From NCBI GenBank assembly GCA_023489275.1, contig JAMDDD010000005.1, forward strand, positions 1,023 through 65,022: a DNA stretch of 64,000 nt, given 5' to 3'. Position numbers and translations under genes: made by a program. Origin of the DNA: Actinomycetota bacterium (GTDB lineage: Bacteria; Actinomycetota; Thermoleophilia; BMS3ABIN01). The stretch's first letter is position 1. Each line of letters starts with the position of its first letter. The notes below the pieces were generated by a model that did not search any database, was not told the origin of the DNA, and was given only the letters and a program-made list of their open reading frames with translations. Positions 32,483-41,608 of this stretch are shown one piece after another.

Positions 32483-33112
32483 ATCGTTCCTCCAGTGGTT
32501 TTTTTGGATTGTTCCATATACAGATTACCCGATTGACGCCAAACAAATATAGTTATTATCATATTTTAATAAGATATCAAGACACGGGAAAGTATTATTT
32601 CCCACCAGCTGCGTTTCCTCAACCGGCCATTTTTCAGCAGGAAAAAGGCCTGACAAAATCAGTCAAAAATTGCGAAAAGTGCTGCTTATGGCAATACCCC
32701 GGGGGGCTTATAGTGGACCAAATTTGAGTTTGCTTAATCATGAATATAAATAATATGCATCATGTAAAAAGCGAATATTAGAGTAAACTTCTTGCATTAA
32801 GAGCGTCTTTATCAACTATCTGTGGTGCATGGTAGCGCAGTAACGGTGGTTGGGTAAGACTTGATCTTGACCGGCTAACGCGGAAACTGGCCCCGGTGGA
32901 GTTACCCGGTCTTCTGATATGCGAGTCAGCTCATGAATTTGAGGCCCTTCTTTTCCGGAACCGTTAATGTGTTCCCGCGACCCCGGATCTTGGGCGCTCT
33001 GGAGGTCCAGGAAAACGTCTACTCGGGGGAGTAGGAGGTGATGGAAAGGTTTAATGCAGAAAGTTGTTTTCAGCCCTAACCAGAATTCGACTAGGAGGAG
33101 GAGGGTGAAGGA

Positions 33113-36100
33113 ATGAAGAGCAGTTTCGGAGGTAATCGCAAGCTGCGGATCCTGTTGGTTATCGCTCCGCTGGCTTTGCTGATAATCCTGGCGGTAGCAA
33201 CGCTGGGGCTTTCCAGCGGCGCCGCGGTGACTCAATATCAAAGTACGGCTGTACCGGGCAATTACGGCGTCAGCAACCAGATGCTTTATGTCGCCAACGG
33301 CACCGACAGCAATGTCAAGGTAATTGACGTGGGCAGCATGAGTGTCGTCGACACCGTTCCGGTGCCGGCCCAGCCGGACGGCCTGCAGGGCCTCGGCTTG
33401 AACTGGGAGGTCCACGGCGTTGTCCCGTCGGCCGACAGAAGCAGCCTCTACACGGTGGGCGCTCTCTCGGGCGGCTACTTAAATGGCAGCAATTGTGACG
33501 GCGGCTGCGGTTATCACATTTCCCAGATCAACACCAAGACCAAAACTGAGATTAGGACCATCCCGCTGCCGACCGCCGCTTACGACCCGGTTGGCTACTG
33601 CGGCCTGGAGTACAACCTCAACAACGTCAACTCGAACTACCTGATCGCGGCAACAATGAACACCACGGACGCCAATCTGACGAACATGTTTGGCGCCCCG
33701 AATCTGGGTCGCACGCCGCAGCAAATGTTAGGCGGCTGGGCCAGTGTCAACCTGACTACCGGCTCGTCCACGTTCCTGAGCACCGACCAGAACGGCGACG
33801 GAGAATCAGGCACCTGCGGTATCGCCTGGAACGCCGCCGGCACGAAGGGCTACGCCTCGCAGATGTTCTCGCCGTTCATCGCCACGATCAACTGGGATGC
33901 GGCCACGGCCACCGGCACGCTCACGGGCTCGGCCATCGACGCTCCCGCCAACAGCGGCATGTATCATCAGGAAACAACAGACCCGTCCACCAATACCCTG
34001 TATGCGGCGAACGAGCAGCTCATCGATGTGATCGACATGAACACCGATACACGGATCACCACCATCGACATGTCCAAGCTGCTGGGCGCTACGGCTCCGC
34101 TGCATACGCATTCTGTGGACTTCACCGATGCGGGCGGCCACAAGGTGCTGTACGCGACGGTGCGGGATTATCCCGACAACAGCCAGGCAAGCATCGTGGC
34201 GCTTGACGTCAGCAATGTAAACAGCCCGGTAGTGATCGGTGAGACCCAGGGTCTTAACTACGAAGCCTGCGGCGTCTACGCCGATCCCAATAAGAGCCTG
34301 TACTACAAGGCTTCGGGGATCATCAGCGGCGCTCAGAGCGCTGCCGACGCCGTATATGGCATAACGGTTACCGCCGGTGGCAGCAATTACACTTCGGTGC
34401 CGACGGTGACGATCAGCGGCGGTGGCGGCAGCGGCGCCAGCGCGTCAGTCAGCGTTTATAACGGTTCTGTCAACGCCATCAACCTCCTCTCCGGCGGCGG
34501 CGGCTACACCACCGCTCCGACGGTGACGATCAGCGGCGGTGGCGGCAGCGGCGCGACGGCGACGGCTTCGATCGTCCCGGTTGCTCCGTTCAACCATAAC
34601 GCTCTCGCTAACGACCTGCTGTTCATCGCCGGCGGCCGCGACAGCAACGTCAAGGTCGTCGACCCGAGCTCGATGAGCATCGTGGACAAGATCCCGGTGC
34701 CGGACGAGGTCACGCCTGGTACGCCGGGAAATCCGACCACCTGCGTCAACTTGCCCTACTATGGCTGCACCAACCTGTACAGCCTCAATCCTGCCTTGAT
34801 GGATTGGGAGGTCCATGGTGTTTCTGTTTCGCCCGACCGCACCAAGATCTATGCGCAGGGCGCCCTCTCCGGCGGCAGTTACGCGACGCCGGGCGACTTA
34901 AACAGCACGTTCAACGTGGGCGACTACAAGCTGTACACGATCGGCACGGCGGATAAGCAGCTCCAGCGCGCAGATTCCCTGCAGCAGGCCAGTGACCCGG
35001 TAAATCCGGTTGGCTTCTGCGGCATGGAATACGACCTGAATAACGAGAACGCGAACTACATGATCTCGACATCGATGAACGCCAGCAACGCCACGCTCAA
35101 AGGCGCTCTGAGCGGCGCCGATCTCTCGAACGTGCGCGGCAGCGGTTATAACGAGCACGGCGGTTGGTACATCTTCAACCTGTCGACGCATCAGAACGTC
35201 AGCTTCCTCGACACGTACGATTCGGCGGCGGGCGAGGTCAACAATGAGTCCTCCACCTGCGGCATTGCCTGGAATGCGAGCGGCACGAACGCTTACGCAT
35301 CGCAGATGTTCCAGCCGTTTATCGACACAATAAGCTGGACGCCGGAGGCCGGGACTAATCCGCCCAGTGGTACTGTGACCGGCAACCTGACGCTGACGTC
35401 AGAAGCAAGTGGCGGCATGCACCAGGAATCCTCGGATAAAACGAATGGAATCCTGTATGTAAGCGATGATAGCGGTTATCTGGATGCTTATAGCATGACT
35501 ACTAACACAGCGATTGGCGAGATCAACATTCGCGGCCTCACCGGTTCGCCGAATGTTATGGTCCACAGCGTTGAGGTGTCTCCGAGCGACCCAAGCGTCA
35601 TCTATGTGCAGGGTCATGACTTGCCAGAAAATCCGGCAGGCACGGTCGATCCGGACAAGGGCGCCACTGAAGGCGGCGTTGCTGTCATCAAGATCGACGA
35701 CTTCGCAAACCCGGGCAGCTCGGCGCACGTGCTGGGAATCATCCCGGATATGGGCTATAACTCCTGCGGCGTGTATGCGATCCCCGACAAATCAACCTGG
35801 CAGGCAGTCCAGAACGCGGTCAAGCCAGCGCTGTCACTGACAAAGGGCAACGTGTACTGGGCCTCGTACAGCGACTATACGAACCACCAGCTGTCGGTTG
35901 ACTTCACGGTCAACGCGGCAGCGACAAGCTCGGCGGCGAGCGGCGTGCAGATTACCGGCGCCACCTTCGACCGGGCCGGCGTGTCCCTGGCAACCCCGAT
36001 GCCGCTTTCGCTTGGCGATTTCGGCGCCGGCGGCAGCGCCTCGTTCACGCTCAAGTACGACGTTTCCAGCCTGGTTGGCAACGTGTTCAAGACAACCACC

Positions 36101-36139
36101 GATGCATCTGCCGATGGCGGCGCGTGGACCTATCCCTAA
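33113..36139 (+). CDS. Secreted 1008-aa protein: two homologous YVTN/YncE-like beta-propellers, a Gly-rich repeat linker and the shared C-terminal YWAS..TYP domain
   Basis: Strong RBS and N-terminal signal/TM segment. Internal duplication of DSNVKV, WEVHGV, CG.EY, TCGIAWNA, YASQMF, HQE, HSV and CGVYA. Confidence 0.8.
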   Translation: MKSSFGGNRKLRILLVIAPLALLIILAVATLGLSSGAAVTQYQSTAVPGNYGVSNQMLYVANGTDSNVKVIDVGSMSVVDTVPVPAQPDGLQGLGLNWEVHGVVPSADRSSLYTVGALSGGYLNGSNCDGGCGYHISQINTKTKTEIRTIPLPTAAYDPVGYCGLEYNLNNVNSNYLIAATMNTTDANLTNMFGAPNLGRTPQQMLGGWASVNLTTGSSTFLSTDQNGDGESGTCGIAWNAAGTKGYASQMFSPFIATINWDAATATGTLTGSAIDAPANSGMYHQETTDPSTNTLYAANEQLIDVIDMNTDTRITTIDMSKLLGATAPLHTHSVDFTDAGGHKVLYATVRDYPDNSQASIVALDVSNVNSPVVIGETQGLNYEACGVYADPNKSLYYKASGIISGAQSAADAVYGITVTAGGSNYTSVPTVTISGGGGSGASASVSVYNGSVNAINLLSGGGGYTTAPTVTISGGGGSGATATASIVPVAPFNHNALANDLLFIAGGRDSNVKVVDPSSMSIVDKIPVPDEVTPGTPGNPTTCVNLPYYGCTNLYSLNPALMDWEVHGVSVSPDRTKIYAQGALSGGSYATPGDLNSTFNVGDYKLYTIGTADKQLQRADSLQQASDPVNPVGFCGMEYDLNNENANYMISTSMNASNATLKGALSGADLSNVRGSGYNEHGGWYIFNLSTHQNVSFLDTYDSAAGEVNNESSTCGIAWNASGTNAYASQMFQPFIDTISWTPEAGTNPPSGTVTGNLTLTSEASGGMHQESSDKTNGILYVSDDSGYLDAYSMTTNTAIGEINIRGLTGSPNVMVHSVEVSPSDPSVIYVQGHDLPENPAGTVDPDKGATEGGVAVIKIDDFANPGSSAHVLGIIPDMGYNSCGVYAIPDKSTWQAVQNAVKPALSLTKGNVYWASYSDYTNHQLSVDFTVNAAATSSAASGVQITGATFDRAGVSLATPMPLSLGDFGAGGSASFTLKYDVSSLVGNVFKTTTDASADGGAWTYP
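34400..34554 (+). repeat. 38-bp direct repeat encoding PTVTISGGGGSGA
   Basis: CCGACGGTGACGATCAGCGGCGGTGGCGGCAGCGGCGC at 34400-34437 and 34517-34554, a 117-nt (39-aa) period. Confidence 0.9.
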
Positions 36140-36201
36140 ATGAGCGGGACTAGGGAAAACGGAGAACGTCATTGATCAAGCTAAGTAAAAAGGAGAACGT
36201 T

Positions 36202-36327
36202 ATGGCTAAGAAAAGCCAGCGGGAGCCTTACGCTAAGCCTGAGCTGGTGAAGCACGAGAACCTGAAGGAAATTACCTTCGAGTGCTCGGGCTGGCAGTGC
36301 AGCGTAGTGGTTCCGTCAGCGCCGTAA
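36202..36327 (+). CDS. 41-aa RiPP-like precursor peptide, copy 1 (MAKKSQREPYAKPELVKHENLKEITFECSGWQCSVVVPSAP)
   Basis: AAGGAG RBS, a near-identical paralog at 40272 differing mostly synonymously, and a YxxPxL..T leader motif. Confidence 0.85.
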   Translation: MAKKSQREPYAKPELVKHENLKEITFECSGWQCSVVVPSAP

Positions 36328-36362
36328 AACGGCGAAGAGAAAGCAGGACGATAGCAACGAAA

Positions 36363-36395
36363 CGGGAGGGCCGGCCTCGCGGGCCGGCCCTCCCG
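36363..36395 (+). terminator. 14-bp GC-rich hairpin after peptide 1
   Basis: CGGGAGGGCCGGCC-TCGCG-GGCCGGCCCTCCCG; no U-tract on the plus strand. Confidence 0.65.
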
Positions 36396-36485
36396 AAAAC
36401 TTGACAGATCGGCGGGCAAGTTTGGCGGATTTGCCGTATAATTAAAAACTGCTTTTCCGCAACCAGAAGAAGGAGAACGTATCGC

Positions 36486-37070
36486 ATGAAAGCTGTAGCA
36501 GGCCAGAACCGGAACGGGAAATGGAGAGGTTCACAGGGAATGATGGCGGTGGCCGCGATGGCGCTGCTTGCCTTCACCATCATCATCGCGGGATGCGGCG
36601 GGGGGTCTGGAAACACAACAGCCTCACAGCTTAATAGCAAGTCAACAGGCACAACAGGGAAAACAGTGGCCTCAACACACAAAACTGGCACGACCGCTAC
36701 TGTTCCCGGGGTTATGGGAAACCAGCAGGTGCTGGCCGGATATACCGCGGACCAGTGCATGTCCGACTTGACGGCGCGGTACGGAAGCAGTGACGTTGCC
36801 GCTCAGGCATGCGCCCAGATCAACAAGGATTACGGAAGTTCCGTGCCCCGCAGCCAGCTAACCACCACTGTTTTGCCTAAAATCGAGCAGCAACATCCGA
36901 ACTGGAAACCGGTGCAGCCGGGAACTCCGCCGCCGTCGCCCGCACCGTCTCAACCGACGTCTGGCGGGCAGTCGCCGCCAGGAGGATCGGGCGGCACGAG
37001 CACGGGCGGCTGGTCCGGCGGCGGTATTCCGATCACGGTGCCGGGGCAGCCCGGAGGTAACGGCCCCTAA
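36486..37070 (+). CDS. Lipoprotein with a small Cys-paired domain and a Pro/Gly-rich tail
   Basis: AAGGAG RBS, lipobox IIAGC, Thr-rich linker, DQC...QAC pair, C-terminus GGWSGGGIPITVPGQPGGNGP. Confidence 0.7.
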   Translation: MKAVAGQNRNGKWRGSQGMMAVAAMALLAFTIIIAGCGGGSGNTTASQLNSKSTGTTGKTVASTHKTGTTATVPGVMGNQQVLAGYTADQCMSDLTARYGSSDVAAQACAQINKDYGSSVPRSQLTTTVLPKIEQQHPNWKPVQPGTPPPSPAPSQPTSGGQSPPGGSGGTSTGGWSGGGIPITVPGQPGGNGP

Positions 37071-37099
37071 GGCCGGACGGCCGGCGCGGCCCAGCGACA

Positions 37100-38149
37100 A
37101 TGACAGGTTATAAGGGGAAGAAAATGCTTGACAGTCTAAGTGAGATCATGGGTCAACGGTTCAGCGACGCCAAGCCAAATGCGGCGACGTATGACGTGCA
37201 CGGCGTCGTCACAAAAGTCTATGCGGATGACCATCTGCTGGCGCTGGCGATCCAGGATTTCCTGAGGCCTTTCCGCGGCCTGCCGGGCGCAGAGCCGGAC
37301 ATCGAGTTCTATCTCCTGACCAAGCCGGATGGCGACAAGGATGCCGGCGGCAGCTTCCGGGCAGCGGAGCTCCTGTATGACTGGAAGGTCCTCCGCTACA
37401 GCCGGGAAGGCCAGCTGCGGTATCAGGAAGTGCCCGGCGCCGGCTCGGTCGCGGCGGATCTCGATGCCGGACTGGCAGTGGCATTTGTGGATAGTGGCAT
37501 GTCGGCGCGGGCCTGGTCTGTGGCGCATGTGATCTTCTTCCCGATCTGGGCTCAGCTTCTGAAGGTAAAAGGCCTTTTCCCCGTGCATGCGGCCGGCATG
37601 GAGCGGCAGGGGTGCGGTCTTCTCTTTCCCGGAAGGAGCGGCAGCGGAAAGTCCACCCTGTCATTGCAGCTCTTGCGGCGCGGCTTCCGGCTGCTGGGAG
37701 ACGATACGGTCTTTGTCAGGGCAAATTCCCATGATGGTGCGGACATGCTCTTCTTTCCGGAGGAAGTTGATGTCTGCCCGGAGACGGTGGACCTGTTCCC
37801 CCAGCTGGCTTTGGCGCGAAATCTGACCGAGGATCGCTGGCAGCCCAAGACCAGGGTGAATCTCGGCGATGTCAGATCGAGCCAGGTGATCGAATCTGCG
37901 GCAGTCAACCTGCTCGTATTCCCGGTTATCGCCCGCGACGGCTGCACGCGTTACGAACGGATCGGGCAGACGGAGGCCCTGGCGGAGCTGATTCTGTTCG
38001 CCTTCCTGTTTATGGACCCGGAGACCAGCAAGGAAAACTTTGGTCTGCTGGCGGGTCTGGTGCGCAGGGCAGGCTGTTTCCGGCTCCACATGGGCCTGGA
38101 CGGCGGTGAGCTTGCCAAAGCTGTTGACGAAATGGTAGCTAGAGTATAA
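37100..38149 (+). CDS. HPr kinase-related P-loop kinase
   Basis: VHAAG, Walker A GRSGSGKST and LLGDDTVFV follow the HprK/PEPCK-like kinase pattern. Start may be 37124. Confidence 0.75.
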   Translation: MTGYKGKKMLDSLSEIMGQRFSDAKPNAATYDVHGVVTKVYADDHLLALAIQDFLRPFRGLPGAEPDIEFYLLTKPDGDKDAGGSFRAAELLYDWKVLRYSREGQLRYQEVPGAGSVAADLDAGLAVAFVDSGMSARAWSVAHVIFFPIWAQLLKVKGLFPVHAAGMERQGCGLLFPGRSGSGKSTLSLQLLRRGFRLLGDDTVFVRANSHDGADMLFFPEEVDVCPETVDLFPQLALARNLTEDRWQPKTRVNLGDVRSSQVIESAAVNLLVFPVIARDGCTRYERIGQTEALAELILFAFLFMDPETSKENFGLLAGLVRRAGCFRLHMGLDGGELAKAVDEMVARV

Positions 38150-38152
38150 AAT
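38124..38152 (+). promoter_or_regulatory. Sigma70-type promoter for the rhodanese-protein cassette
   Basis: TTGACG-N17-TAAAAT overlapping the end of the kinase gene. Confidence 0.5.
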
Positions 38153-38335
38153 TAGCTGCCTTATCCGGCGCAGCCGGGGCGCCGGGTGGTTGGCAAGCTT
38201 GGGGGCTTGCCGCAATCCCGAAGCAGCGACCATCGCTGCGGCAGGAAAAAGGAGGGGTGGGACCGCTTAATGGCCGCGGGCCCGCACAAAGTCCGCTCCT
38301 AGCGGAAAAAACACTAGAGGATGAAGGGAGGAAGT

Positions 38336-40219
38336 ATGCAAATCAGTTCAAAATTGCTTCGCACGGCGATTCTCGTTCTGGGGCTGATGGTAGCGCTTGG
38401 GCTTTATCTGAGCCTGAGCCTTGGACGCATCAGCACGGCCAAGGGCGTCGTCAGCGCCTGTAGCGGAACTGACTGGCAGAAAGTCCAATGCTACGCGGAT
38501 AAGTACATCCAGAACCAGTATCCGGGCGCCAGCGTTGGCGAAGGCGAAGGCAGCGTCGCCGCCGCGCAAAGCACGCCCTCGGGTTTCTACGTAAACCAGG
38601 CAACGCTCAAGAGTAAAGTTGACTCTAACGGTGACGGCACCTATCTGGGTGAGGGCGACGACCTGGCCAAGGCGCCGGTTCTGATCGACAACCTGAACCA
38701 GTTTACGACCTTGATTCCAGGCACCACCTTCCGTTGCAACTGGAATGAGAACAGCTGCTTCGAGCCGGGATCGGTGGCCGACGTCAAGACACAGGTGGAT
38801 GACCACGAAGCAGCCACCGGTCAGGTACCGGCTATTGTTGATTACTGCCTGACCGACCACACGGCGGCGCCGACCACCGGCGCCTGGGGCTACATCGCCC
38901 AGACCGGCGGCCTGGCCACCGACGGCTCCATCCCCAAGGTCTACGGCTTTACCTGGGGACGTGACGGCTGGACCAACACGCCGGTTAACAGCGGCTCCAC
39001 CACCACCAACGGCATCTACACGTACTCCAATACGTATCCAGTCACTTCTCCGGCCGCGACTGCTACCTACACGCCACCGTCCACGGTGCCGGGCAGTTGC
39101 ACCAGCGCCGGCGGCGACGCCGACCTGGTCCGCTGCGCGGCTGAGTGGGCCATCAGCCAGGATGCCGGTGAAGGCAACGTTGGCAACGGCCAGAATGTGG
39201 GCGCCACCATGACCGCCGGCCAGGTGGTTGATGTTAGAGCGGATACGCCTGCAAGCACCGTGAACCTGAACGGTTCCCTGGCTGCGAATCAGATCCCGAT
39301 CAACACTATCTTCAACACCGGTCTGGCTAACGTCAATCCGGCGGCAACGAGCGGCGTTCTCATCGCCAGCGGCTCCCAGGGACCGGGCGGCATCGTCGCC
39401 GAGGGTCTCAGGATGCTGGGATACACCACCGCCACCGGCGGCTATATCCATAGCGGCGTGCCGTACTATAACAACACCCTGTCGGTAAGCCAGGGACAGC
39501 CGAACACCGGCACAGCTTACCCGCTCGATGCGGTCACGGCGCAGTGCACCGCTCCCAGCAACGGCTGCAACCAGATCTATGGTACTCAGGATCTGGGCGC
39601 GGAGATGAACACCACCGCGGCGGCGATCAGCAGCTCCAGCGCTACGGACACCGGTGACACGACCGCGACGGTCAGCAGGACGACGAGTCAGCCGGCTACC
39701 ACCAAGATCGATCTGACCGGTTCTGACAGCTCTGCCGTACATGTCAACAACACCATCCTGCACGCCAGCGACACGGAGAACCTGACCGGCCTGCATCCGG
39801 GTGTGACCTATACCGGCACGCTGAGCGTCTACAACAACATGGCGCTGGTTTCCAGCACGCCGATCAGCTTCACGACGAGCGGCATCGCCTGCGCCAAACC
39901 GGCGCTCGGGCTGACGTCACCTCCGCACGCCTACTGGGCCAGCCTGTCCGACTACAGCGCCGGCATCCTGTCGGTTGACTTCACCATCAATAATAGCGCC
40001 GTCAGCCCGAACGCGGTGGGTGTCCAGATCACCGGCAGCGCCAGCAACAACGGCGTCACCGTCAACTCCGGCATACCTTCGGCGGCGACCAACATCGCCT
40101 CTGGCGGCTCGGCTACGGTGACGGTCACGTACCACATTCCCGCGGGCGTCACATGGTTCCACACAAGCCTGACCGTGAGCGCCCAGGATGAATGCGGAAA
40201 CTCGTATACGTATCCCTAG
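38336..40219 (+). CDS. Secreted tandem rhodanese-like protein with an FN3-like domain and the shared C-terminal YWAS..TYP domain
   Basis: GGGAGG RBS and signal peptide. Domain 1 has VLID..IPG..IVDYCLTDHTA..WGRDGW; domain 2 has VVDVR..LRMLGY. LTGLHPGVTY is FN3-like. Confidence 0.7.
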   Translation: MQISSKLLRTAILVLGLMVALGLYLSLSLGRISTAKGVVSACSGTDWQKVQCYADKYIQNQYPGASVGEGEGSVAAAQSTPSGFYVNQATLKSKVDSNGDGTYLGEGDDLAKAPVLIDNLNQFTTLIPGTTFRCNWNENSCFEPGSVADVKTQVDDHEAATGQVPAIVDYCLTDHTAAPTTGAWGYIAQTGGLATDGSIPKVYGFTWGRDGWTNTPVNSGSTTTNGIYTYSNTYPVTSPAATATYTPPSTVPGSCTSAGGDADLVRCAAEWAISQDAGEGNVGNGQNVGATMTAGQVVDVRADTPASTVNLNGSLAANQIPINTIFNTGLANVNPAATSGVLIASGSQGPGGIVAEGLRMLGYTTATGGYIHSGVPYYNNTLSVSQGQPNTGTAYPLDAVTAQCTAPSNGCNQIYGTQDLGAEMNTTAAAISSSSATDTGDTTATVSRTTSQPATTKIDLTGSDSSAVHVNNTILHASDTENLTGLHPGVTYTGTLSVYNNMALVSSTPISFTTSGIACAKPALGLTSPPHAYWASLSDYSAGILSVDFTINNSAVSPNAVGVQITGSASNNGVTVNSGIPSAATNIASGGSATVTVTYHIPAGVTWFHTSLTVSAQDECGNSYTYP

Positions 40220-40271
40220 ACACTGAACCAGGAATATGGCAAATAAGGCAAAGAAAAGAGGAGAAACCGCA

Positions 40272-40397
40272 ATGACCAAAGAAACAATGCGGGAACCCTA
40301 TGCCAAGCCTGAGCTGGTGAAGCACGAGAACCTGAAGGAAATCACCTTCGAGTGCTCGGGCTGGCAGTGTAGCGTAGTGGTTCCGCCGGCGCCTTAA
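40272..40397 (+). CDS. 41-aa RiPP-like precursor peptide, copy 2 (MTKETMREPYAKPELVKHENLKEITFECSGWQCSVVVPPAP)
   Basis: GAGGAG RBS; 34 of 35 residues identical to copy 1 from R7 onward. An alternative in-frame ATG exists at 40236. Confidence 0.85.
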   Translation: MTKETMREPYAKPELVKHENLKEITFECSGWQCSVVVPPAP

Positions 40398-40443
40398 AGG
40401 CGAAACAAAGAAAGAAGGGCGCAGCTCGCTGCGTCTTTAAGGA

Positions 40444-40473
40444 GAGAGGGCGGCCCGTACGGGCCGCCCTCTC
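40444..40473 (+). terminator. 30-bp perfect palindrome after peptide 2
   Basis: GAGAGGGCGGCCC-GTAC-GGGCCGCCCTCTC. Confidence 0.65.
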
Positions 40474-40961
40474 GCTGCGTTAGCCTCCACCGATCAAGCA
40501 ATCATCCAATTTTACCGAGGATTCCGCTCCGCTCTTGATTTTCGGATTTTGAACCTTGCGCTTGTTAACTTTGGACTTAAAAAGCGGGGACGCACGCCGC
40601 GCCCCCGCCAAGAAGAAGCGGCAATTGCCTCCTCTTCATGGAAACCGGTTGGCAGGAATATCAGGCGCATCGCGAAACACCCCAAATAGTCATTACCACG
40701 GCTTCCAAACATAAAAACAGATATTGAATAGCAAAACCCGGTTTCTAACCAGCCTGATCGAGAAACCTTGACCGCTACCAACAATGTTCTCGCGGGTGCT
40801 GCCCTTCATGGAAAGCCCCTTGGGGGAATACCCTTAGCCCATATTATGAGAAACTCTTCGGCAGAAGACGGTAAAATCTGTAGCGGCGGGGTCCCGGGCA
40901 ATTTTACTTGACGGCCGGCAAAGGGTACCCTTTAATCAGGTTCGTTATTCCAGGAGAAAGC

Positions 40962-41608
40962 TTGCAGCACATCATCGGCCCGCTCATAAATCTGGCCACG
41001 GATACAATCGGCCCGTACGGCGTCATCGCCGTTTTTCTTCTGATGGCGCTTGAGAGCGCCTGCATCCCCATTCCCAGCGAAGTCATCATGCTTCTGGGCG
41101 GCTTCCAGGTTGCCCAGGGCAAAATGACGCTTCTGGAGGTGACGGCCGCGGGCGTCACCGGTAACATGGCCGGTTCCTGGCTGGCTTACGCGGCCGGCCG
41201 GTATGGCGGCCGCGGCGCGCTCGAGCGATATGGCAAGTATATCTTTTTATCAAGTGAAAAACTCGATATGGCGGACAAATGGTGGGCAAGATACGGCAGT
41301 CCGGCGGTATTTTTCTCGCGGATGCTGCCGATCATCCGCACGTTCATTTCGCTGCCGGCGGGAATTGGACGGATGCCTTTTGCCCGTTTTCCGCTTATAC
41401 CGTGGCCGGCTCGATCCCCTGGTCGCTGATGCTGGCGTTTGTCGGTTATAAAGTAGGCGAGAACTGGCAAAGCATCTACGACAAGCTGCATCTGCTTGAC
41501 TACCCCGTTCTGGCCGCGGTAGTCCTTGCTTTATTTTATGCGATCTGGCGCCGGCGCCGCCGCCAGCAGGCCGCCGTTGCCGCTGTCAAAAACGGTCCCG
41601 AAAAATAG
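40962..41608 (+). pseudogene. dedA: DedA family membrane protein with a frameshift (pseudogene or sequencing error)
   Basis: ESACIPIPSE and RMLPIIRTFISLPAG are in one frame; the continuation SAYTVAGSIPW is in another. Adding one T to the T4 run at 41387-41390 restores the frame. Confidence 0.75.

Follow-up and report, generated by a model that had tools for sequence, protein, structure and literature searches.

Organization of the locus

The subject of this analysis is a repeated gene cassette in the genome of an uncultured actinobacterium (Actinomycetota bacterium, GenBank assembly GCA_023489275.1). It lies within a stretch of 64,000 nucleotides of contig JAMDDD010000005.1 (positions 1,023 to 65,022, forward strand), which is called the window here and provides the numbering for the locus. 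In each of two cassettes, the gene for a large secreted protein that ends in a common C-terminal domain (CTD) is followed by a gene for the same short peptide. Together, the two components look like a previously undescribed protein-peptide partnership. Six genes on the + strand and two hairpins occupy positions 33113-40473, as judged from the list of open reading frames (ORFs) and a reading of the sequence:

33113..36139, + strand: ORF A, 1008 aa, secreted or membrane-anchored, with an N-terminal hydrophobic signal or anchor, two YVTN-type beta-propeller regions and a C-terminal CTD
35801..36136, + strand: CTD of ORF A, a 112-aa predicted beta-sandwich domain (alignment to the ORF B tail; AlphaFold2)
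36202..36327, + strand: peptide copy 1, 41 aa, with a lasso-type leader (residues 1-26) and the conserved core ECSGWQCSVVVPSAP; an AAGGAG Shine-Dalgarno site lies a few nucleotides before the ATG
36364..36394, + strand: hairpin 1, GC-rich, 13 bp stem, closing the ORF A-peptide unit (sequence reading)
36486..37070, + strand: lipoprotein, 194 aa, with the lipobox IIAGC, a small two-Cys domain, a Gly/Pro/Ser-rich linker and the tail ...GGWSGGGIPITVPGQPGGNGP
37100..38149, + strand: HprK-like P-loop kinase, 349 aa, between the two cassettes (Pfam Hpr_kinase_C)
38321..40219, + strand: ORF B, 632 aa, secreted; rhodanese-like passenger (divergent) followed by the C-terminal CTD
39881..40216, + strand: CTD of ORF B (147.5 bits against the CTD profile)
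40272..40397, + strand: peptide copy 2, 41 aa, with a GAGGAG Shine-Dalgarno site upstream
40444..40473, + strand: hairpin 2, GC-rich, 14 bp stem, closing the ORF B-peptide unit (sequence reading; an orthologous hairpin is present in the related locus L038)

ORF A and ORF B both have Sec-type N-termini, and their last ~109 residues align with 43% identity (E 2e-15). No other significant alignment exists between the two proteins. An earlier note, prepared from the sequence alone, had described them as unrelated secreted proteins with a homologous C-terminal domain of ~105 aa, and this description holds. The peptide start codons follow the stop codons of ORF A and ORF B at 62 and 52 nt, respectively, within the ~50-65 nt given in that note, and the two peptides are 88% identical. 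The lipoprotein and the HprK-like kinase that it placed between the cassettes were likewise recovered, the former through its lipobox and the latter through a Pfam Hpr_kinase_C match of 37.5 bits (E 2.2e-9, cut-off 33.3). Two further descriptions stood in part. The strong hairpin reported behind each peptide is present as a stem, while a consensus terminator scan made no + strand call at either hairpin and no T-run follows on the + strand. Terminators without a T-tail are common in Actinobacteria. ORF B had been called a tandem rhodanese. Pfam detects no rhodanese domain in it, but contig C23 encodes a paralogue that has two Pfam rhodanese stretches, and the ORF B passenger resembles it remotely (24% over 345 aa, E 4e-9), hence the term "divergent rhodanese-like". 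Pfam assigned no family to either large ORF, nor to the peptide or the lipoprotein, and the YVTN beta-propeller repeats of ORF A were detected by NCBIfam only (beta_rpt_yvtn, 31.7 bits).

A common tail domain on unrelated secreted proteins

AlphaFold2, supplied with 39 CTD sequences, predicts a seven-stranded beta-sandwich with one short helix at a predicted local distance difference test score (pLDDT) of 92.5. Structural comparison of this model with PDB folds by Foldseek returned generic Ig-like sandwiches only, none at E<=0.001, and the CTD profile found nothing below E 0.6 among PDB sequences. The domain is modelled as a complete sandwich on its own, which argues against the proposal in the earlier note that the peptide completes an unfinished fold by strand complementation.

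A profile search of 1.84 billion representative proteins retrieved 950 proteins at E<=0.001. The CTD occupies the extreme C-terminus in ~140 of the best 150 of them, as counted from the result table, and a few proteins carry it elsewhere. The passengers to which it is attached are unrelated and include YVTN propellers, three NosD-type beta-helices, rhodanese, GH5, a BNR propeller and pro-kumamolisin (the sedolisin pro-domain), among others. The last two residues, 111 and 112, are Tyr in 85% and Pro in 95% of the sequences. Many CTDs also contain a Cys ~7 residues from the end; that of ORF A has none.

The N-termini of the CTD proteins encoded in the host genome, read by eye, are of the Sec type and lack a twin-arginine motif. 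Export of the peptide by hitch-hiking on its partner through the Tat pathway was ruled out on this basis. On contig C12 of the host genome (3925-5628), a CTD copy is internal and lies ahead of a GH5 cellulase-type domain.

A conserved peptide with a lasso-type leader

Nine residues are invariant among 40 peptide sequences: Y10, P13, L15, T25, W31, C33, S34, V37 and P38. If the core starts at E27, the first four of these fall at positions -17, -14, -12 and -2, which reproduces the lasso-type leader pattern of YxxPxL at -17 to -12 with Thr at -2. PMC10368454 describes these two features, including the penultimate Thr, for lasso precursors. In the ESM Atlas, the nearest named cluster is "Lasso RiPP family leader peptide-containing protein" (0.86; RiPP, a peptide synthesized ribosomally and modified post-translationally), which serves as a lead only.

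The C-terminal part follows the pattern ITFEC-x-x-W-x-CSV-x-VP, with a conserved E-C-x-x-W-x-C segment in which E27 itself varies (A, Q, G, D). This core is nearly invariant over nine genera and all paralogues and is not hypervariable. The ratio of nonsynonymous to synonymous substitution rates (dN/dS) is ~0.15 (29 codons, 51 distinct sequences, 1084 pairs), indicating purifying selection. Together with the strong Shine-Dalgarno sites and the conservation at the protein level, this value rules out a repeat element or non-coding sequence.

The host genome contains a different, seventh small ORF on contig C22 (9990-10073, + strand; ...YAEPCLTKLGNIIDITADSVGWASSWCVNDEDDDGQS), which combines a YxxPxLxxxGx5T-x leader pattern with an unrelated acidic core and has no CTD gene upstream. 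It may be another substrate of the PqqD and kinase set described below.

Genomic linkage and phyletic range

The host genome (1.58 Mb, 92% complete) contains six peptide copies and 13 CTD matches, and five of the six peptide genes lie directly behind a CTD gene. Elsewhere, 47 loci with 58 peptide matches were collected, 53 of which could be assessed because at least 450 nt of upstream sequence was available. In 43 of these 53, a CTD is encoded on the same strand, at most 250 nt upstream of the peptide gene. Since the loci were found through the peptide, this fraction describes linkage from peptide to CTD only. The earlier note had proposed profiles of both components to measure how often they are adjacent across genomes, and the outcome bears out the linkage that it expected. 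Adjacency is kept across nine genera.

The spacers between CTD gene and peptide gene usually measure 50-130 nt, with a median of 61 nt. Of the 43 spacers, 38 lack a stem of at least 8 bp, and their ends mostly show a GGAG-type site ahead of the start codon. Behind the peptide, a GC-rich fold with z < -2 follows in 49 of the 58 copies elsewhere, so that a unit normally ends with its peptide gene. No fused CTD-peptide frame was seen, the open frames at the listed peptide matches being at most 193 aa long. A search of longer proteins for such fusions returned a single 98-aa protein, which is weak evidence as only the 8000 candidates sharing most words were scored.

Both components share one phyletic range, comprising every searched genome of one family and essentially none outside it. 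The peptide occurs in 23 of 23 other genomes of this family (nine genera; 3-12 copies each) and in none of 17 genomes from other families of the class. In a sample of 301 genomes from the phylum, it was found in all three sampled family members and the host genome, the sole other match being restricted to the leader (E 2e-5). The CTD was found in the same four genomes, at 13 to at least 15 copies, plus one weak match (E 3e-7). The family is uncultured, has small genomes (1.2-2.5 Mb) and originates from the subsurface and mine water; public records label its members as Thermoleophilia, Actinomycetes or Gaiellales metagenome-assembled genomes (MAGs) and as "Bacterium BMS3Abin01". In a collection of 5.8 billion proteins, the peptide forms 277 clusters. 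Among the 120 listed, all names given by the sources are "hypothetical protein" and none has a Pfam domain.

A divergent peptide was observed in a Gaiellales MAG (CAZCCR010000002.1, locus L083, 6007-6114), where the shared leader precedes a different core (EPYEKPELTKLDNIKELSGETCWTCQGSFSF). Its gene follows, after 53 nt, that of a CTD which is itself divergent (...CLTQYFYP). This case suggests that variant ligand-domain pairs exist.

Predicted complex of peptide and CTD

Complex prediction of the CTD with the peptide gave interface scores (ipSAE, interaction prediction score from aligned errors) of 0.90, 0.90 and 0.89, compared with 0.02 for the best of three controls. Among solved complexes, 58 of 80 reach the mark set for the predictor, and among mismatched pairs 2 of 110 do, a calibration that holds only roughly here, as the alignments supplied were self-made and unpaired. 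The runs have at least 95% of their contacts in common, and the partner pLDDT is at least 57. The result is not a memory of a known complex, because no solved relative of the CTD exists.

In the model, contacts are made by peptide residues 23-28, 30-38 and 40-41, which belong to the conserved core, whereas the N-terminal 22 residues are free. On the CTD, residues 12-20, 22-23, 26, 31-36, 86-102 and 111-112 are involved, and eight of the 21 CTD positions with at least 80% identity fall within this interface. The peptide segment W31-V37 is placed along CTD residues 95-101, with strands 1, 2 and 6 burying V35 between them. Peptide residues 23-41 are thus predicted to dock on the CTD. The earlier note had suggested such docking for the CSVVVP stretch and had named complex prediction as a check, and the model agrees with the suggested docking. 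Its broader inference of a peptide that partners the large protein and is not a diffusible antibiotic gains in silico support from gene adjacency, co-distribution, the conserved core and the complex model.

HprK-like kinases, a PqqD protein and the absence of lasso cyclization

The HprK-like protein of the window retains an intact P-loop, with G178, S180, G183, K184, S185 and T186 invariant. Its fold matches phosphoenolpyruvate carboxykinase (PEPCK; 1e-9) and HprK/P (1e-6) in Foldseek, and a PDB profile match to HprK was obtained at 8e-6. A paralogue on contig C10 (E 6e-65 to the window copy; 23.3 bits against Pfam Hpr_kinase_C, below cut-off) adjoins genes for PqqD and NTP_transf_5 (1e-59). 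The PqqD protein (C10:31706-32008) matches PF05402 with 67 bits and has the character of a PqqD-type RiPP recognition element (RRE; B1). Its best NCBIfam match, lasso_PqqD_Bac ("lasso peptide biosynthesis PqqD family chaperone"), scores 59.7, below the cut-off of 80.

The kinase and PqqD genes are widely kept in the family. HprK-like matches occur in 23 of 24 genomes, with window-type orthologues (at least 64% identity) in 19 and fragments in two more. PqqD is found in all 24 (23 over cut-off), and the second kinase type lies ~100 nt from the PqqD gene wherever coordinates were compared. By way of the lasso-type leader, the HprK-like kinase is tied to the peptide and would not be a bystander. 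Three observations go beyond the earlier note, namely the lasso-type leader, the tie between kinase and peptide, and the lack of a signal peptide on the latter. According to PMC8498205 and PMC10368454, HPr-kinase homologues phosphorylate linear lasso precursors, the RRE accelerates this phosphorylation, and a nucleotidyltransferase adds a hexose to the phosphate of the precursor. The simplest inference is that the peptides would be substrates of the HprK-like, PqqD and NTP_transf_5 proteins.

A canonical lasso peptide was ruled out by a core unable to form the ring and by searches that found neither a cyclase nor a B2 protease. Core positions 7-9 are C, S and V in 40 of 40 sequences, and no macrolactam ring is possible because no Asp or Glu is present there; the core, E-C-x-x-W-x-C-S-V-x-V-P, starts with Glu, where lasso cores have a small residue. 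The lasso cyclase search yielded just a pair of AsnB-type genes on contig C4, which score 268 and 241 bits with NF033535 (cut-off 525) and for which asparagine synthase fits better. For the B2 leader peptidase (Transglut_core3, PF13471), the best match, at E 0.04, was a multi-pass membrane protein of 723 aa whose core is of the transglutaminase type and which looks TgpA-like by eye, and absence is not proven because the genome is 92% complete.

Several observations concern the surroundings of these genes. On contig C10 (30515-40090), the HprK-like, PqqD and NTP_transf_5 genes are followed by a CTD protein on the opposite strand, whose CTD lacks the usual ...YTYP end. Behind it come ORFs that, by eye, resemble glycosyltransferases, a membrane protein similar to O-antigen ligase and a protein similar to Wzz. 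The two Asn-synthase homologues of contig C4 (1-18000), one with Ser replacing the N-terminal catalytic Cys, are located in a polysaccharide and radical-SAM region with several B12-binding-type radical SAM ORFs and one SPASM-like radical SAM, as read by eye; no link to the peptide was made.

Outside the phylum, an Elusimicrobia MAG (CAYHPY010000015.1, locus L084, 5959-6081) encodes a 40-aa ORF ending in ...LKPYRKPELVKHGVLSIVEGD with the shared ...PYRKPELVKHG... leader. It lies among glycosyltransferases; a PqqD gene is located at a distance of 1.3 kb and an HprK-like gene at ~4 kb, and no lasso cyclase was detected. This hints that cyclase-less kinase/PqqD cassettes of other phyla also use short peptides with such a leader.

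A motif-level resemblance between the lipoprotein tail and the peptide

The lipoprotein between the cassettes ends in a tail of the form W-x(2-5)-[IM]-x-I-x-VP-x2-3-P in 12 of 12 complete orthologues, which mirrors W-x-C-S-V-x-VP-P-x-P of the peptide. A six-frame scan of the host genome with the common form of this C-terminal motif gave 12 matches, consisting of the six peptides, the lipoprotein and five short or antisense frames. The lipoprotein is hence the sole plausible gene besides the six peptides that ends in the motif. A docking or anchoring role for the CTD is favored because this tail, if the resemblance is real, would present a ligand of the CTD on the cell exterior, held by a lipid anchor.

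Proposed model and its weak points

The most plausible explanation is that the peptide is a docking partner of the CTD exoproteins, to which a probability of about 0.5 is assigned. Gene adjacency, shared distribution, the leader pattern, purifying selection and the occurrence of the enzymes are observed, binding is predicted by the structural model, and modification and surface anchoring are proposed. The peptide is probably a modified, RiPP-like docking ligand. Under this model, the cassette would form a docking module of two parts that is restricted to a single uncultured family of actinobacteria. One part would be the beta-sandwich CTD of ~110 aa, appended to many unrelated secreted enzymes. 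The other would be the 41-aa peptide, which is predicted to bind the CTD through its conserved C-terminal part, with valines placed in a pocket of strands 1, 2 and 6. The lasso-type leader would recruit the PqqD recognition protein and two HprK-like kinases, beside which NTP_transf_5 is encoded in this genome. The peptide would then be a RiPP-like precursor that probably receives a phosphate, and perhaps other decorations, before acting, with no lasso cyclization. At the cell surface, the CTD may dock exoenzymes to short W...VxVP ligands, which would be lipid-anchored in the case of the lipoprotein tail and free or bound to a polymer in the case of the peptides. The proximity of the PqqD, kinase and NTP_transf_5 genes to glycosyltransferase, O-antigen-ligase-like and Wzz-like genes hints at attachment of the peptide to an exported polymer. 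How a peptide without a signal leaves the cell belongs to the inferred part of the proposal.

A broader version of this proposal is possible but speculative. In it, an Actinomycetota lineage would reuse the front half of the lasso pathway (leader, RRE, HPr-type kinases and nucleotidyltransferase) for the production of an "address peptide" that carries a phospho- or glyco-modification and is no antibiotic. Its W-x-CSVxVP core would be the ligand of a new docking domain on at least 13 exoenzymes per genome. Together with the tethered motif of the lipoprotein, this could be a new way for a monoderm cell to assemble or anchor its exoproteome, with one ligand gene co-transcribed per enzyme gene.

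Several findings weigh against the docking model. One concerns compartments, as the signal-less peptide and the Sec-exported CTD proteins are made in different places. No exporter is encoded within the cassettes, and the search for one did not extend beyond them. A separate peptide exporter, action before export, or an error in the binding prediction are three possible solutions. On the structural side, besides the rough calibration of the predictor, the CTD interface is barely more conserved than the rest of the domain (mean entropy 1.60 versus 1.87, one-sided p 0.076). The genetic linkage is also incomplete. Only five of the 13 CTD matches of the host genome have a peptide behind them, and ten of the 53 assessable peptides elsewhere have no CTD upstream. 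Of these ten exceptions, one is the second member of a tandem pair of peptides, and four are orthologues of a stand-alone copy whose neighbouring gene looks LOG-like by eye.

The case for modification has weak points of its own. None of the 40 peptides matches any Pfam lasso-leader family (e.g., DUF5972), even at E<=10. The HprK-like proteins stay far below the NCBIfam cut-off of 200 for HprK_rel_A (TIGR04352), with 58.4 bits (6e-16) for the window copy and 49.6 for the C10 copy, and the PqqD and NTP_transf_5 genes lie on another contig, outside the window. The C-terminal Ser used by paeninodin-type kinases is missing, the sole invariant hydroxyl residues being Y10, T25 and S34, and no modification of the peptide was observed. 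Finally, a core-only hidden Markov model gives the lipoprotein tails 2-4.5 bits, and their resemblance to the peptide is a lead at the level of the motif only.

Competing explanations and related systems

The best surviving alternative, itself unlikely, is that the peptide acts as a cytoplasmic pilot or chaperone. It would stay inside the cell and bind the newly made CTD to mark, hold or time its export, and would be left behind or recycled, with the kinases tuning its affinity. This explanation accommodates the missing signal peptide and exporter, the cytoplasmic location of the kinases and PqqD, and the occurrence of one peptide gene per exported protein, as expected of a dedicated chaperone. 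The predicted interface is no different from that of the docking model. The export route speaks against it, as the CTD proteins carry Sec-type signals. Sec moves unfolded chains, and a partner that binds a folded sandwich would hinder export. A dedicated chaperone is further at odds with the only 5 of 13 CTD matches in the host genome that have a peptide behind them, and the similar tail on an exported lipoprotein points to binding outside the cell.

Somewhat more improbable is an ordinary secreted RiPP, in which the HprK-like, PqqD and NTP_transf_5 proteins produce a phosphorylated linear signal or antimicrobial, and adjacency to the CTD reflects shared regulation or ancestry instead of binding. 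RiPP precursors often occur in multiple copies, and both the lasso-type leader and the lasso-type tailoring enzymes are conserved in the family. Yet a core that is nearly invariant over nine genera and all paralogues does not fit such a product, nor do the 43 of 53 adjacencies involving several different passengers, the equally narrow range of CTD and peptide, or the passing complex model. No leader protease, cyclase or exporter was found either, the exporter being sought in the cassettes only.

Phosphorylated or phosphoglycosylated lasso clusters (paeninodin, pseudomycoidin and bsf of Bradymonas), as described in PMC8498205 and PMC10368454, resemble the present system in a YxxPxL and Thr(-2) precursor, a discrete PqqD-type RRE, one or more HPr-kinase homologues and a PF14907-type nucleotidyltransferase. 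They differ in that the present system has no detected lasso cyclase or B2 protease, no core capable of ring formation and no C-terminal Ser. Its precursor genes, moreover, are scattered at 3-12 per genome behind genes for secreted proteins and do not form a single cluster, and their core is conserved and not diversified.

Covalent tagging is very unlikely. Here, the peptide would be ligated to the CTD for anchoring, for example at the ...YTYP end, as the earlier note had proposed for the TYP terminus, or through cysteines. The last CTD residues, 111-112, do touch the peptide in the model, and the Cys near the end of many CTDs could pair with the two conserved Cys of the peptide. The CTD of ORF A contains no Cys, however, and the cassettes hold no ligase, sortase-like or transpeptidase gene, so the ligation proposal found no candidate enzyme; nor was a fused CTD-peptide frame seen in the limited search described above.

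The last alternative, a peptide-derived cofactor subunit in which Cys, Trp or Glu of the core is cross-linked into a redox cofactor of the upstream enzyme, as in QhpC or PqqA, draws on the E-C-x-x-W-x-C segment and the PqqD-family protein but can be set aside as highly improbable, since the passengers are unrelated enzymes and non-enzymes that mostly need no quinone, the predicted contact is with the shared CTD, E27 varies, and no radical SAM or flavoprotein gene occurs in any examined cassette. The KP...E[IV]T spacing of the peptide may resemble that of PqqA. The QhpC analogy raised in the earlier note was not supported either, given the heterogeneous passengers, the predicted contact with the CTD and a cassette free of radical SAM genes. 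QhpC, the gamma subunit of quinohemoprotein amine dehydrogenase, resembles the present peptide in being small and ribosomally made, in having a leader and in containing Cys and Trp, and it ends up in a stoichiometric partnership with a secreted protein of larger size. In contrast, the cassettes have no QhpD-type radical SAM, subtilisin-like QhpE protease or haem subunit, the partners are heterogeneous, and the predicted contact is with a non-catalytic tail. QhpD and QhpE were absent from the window proteins scanned and from the ORF lists of the other cassettes; a genome-wide search did not cover QhpD.

Two further systems offer parallels. Like the cohesin-dockerin pair, the system presented here uses a beta-sandwich module on many unrelated exoenzymes that is predicted to bind a short conserved partner, and it includes a lipid-anchored, long-linker protein with a look-alike of the partner sequence. 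Unlike a Ca-binding dockerin, the ligand is a strand of 15-19 residues, mostly encoded apart, as a peptide that has a RiPP leader and no signal, and the CTD showed no sequence (Pfam) or fold (Foldseek) match to cohesins. In its working, the present system has something of a lasso tailoring pathway and something of a cohesin-dockerin pair, without belonging to either. The C-terminal sorting domains of type IX secretion (T9SS) are also beta-sandwiches of ~100 aa at the C-terminus of unrelated secreted proteins of one lineage. The present host is actinobacterial, however, and its CTD genes are followed by a cognate peptide gene, which T9SS cargo lack. Pfam and NCBIfam T9SS tail families gave no match to the ORF A or ORF B tails at E<=0.01.

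The author of the earlier note did not recognize this architecture as a described system, and that impression was confirmed within the sources consulted. Neither the cassette nor an HprK/PqqD system without a lasso cyclase is described in the literature searched, the lasso precursor alignments in the supplements of PMC10368454 lying outside its scope. Pfam, NCBIfam and the source annotations contain no description of the cassette.

Flanking features and occurrence in metagenomes

The second cassette is followed by a DedA/VTT-family gene (window 40908-41429, + strand), whose position is kept in many related loci. NCBIfam places it closest to the undecaprenyl-phosphate transporter UptA, at 120 bits and below cut-off. 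The conserved position may reflect synteny alone or a tie to the export of envelope polymer. The whole order of CTD protein, peptide, lipoprotein, kinase, CTD protein, peptide and DedA is conserved in many related loci. Sigma-70-like promoter matches (10/12) lie on the + strand upstream of ORF B (38124-38152) and ORF A (32533-32562). The four matches in the region do not exceed expectation (2.8 +/- 1.6 in shuffled sequence).

Near-identical DNA to window positions 35600-40600 is present in one mine-tailings metagenome run (share 0.97), possibly the source. Partial matches, with shares of 0.37 and below, occur in mine-drainage runs of two further studies. The listed sequencing runs that match this segment include no RNA run.

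Implications

Under the broader version of the proposal, the peptide would be the first of the RiPP type to act as a structural partner of many different secreted proteins. If the docking model is correct, RiPP function would extend beyond antibiotics, signals and cofactors to an enzyme-tailored, leader-bearing docking partner for a set of secreted enzymes. The widespread cyclase-less cassettes of HprK-related kinase, PqqD and nucleotidyltransferase would gain a candidate type of substrate, which the Elusimicrobia locus L084 supports as one outgroup example. The compact pair of a 110-aa domain and a tag of ~15 aa could potentially be useful as a protein-tethering tool. For the family itself, the model would show how exoenzymes are organized in an uncultured, small-genome actinobacterial lineage of the subsurface and mine water.

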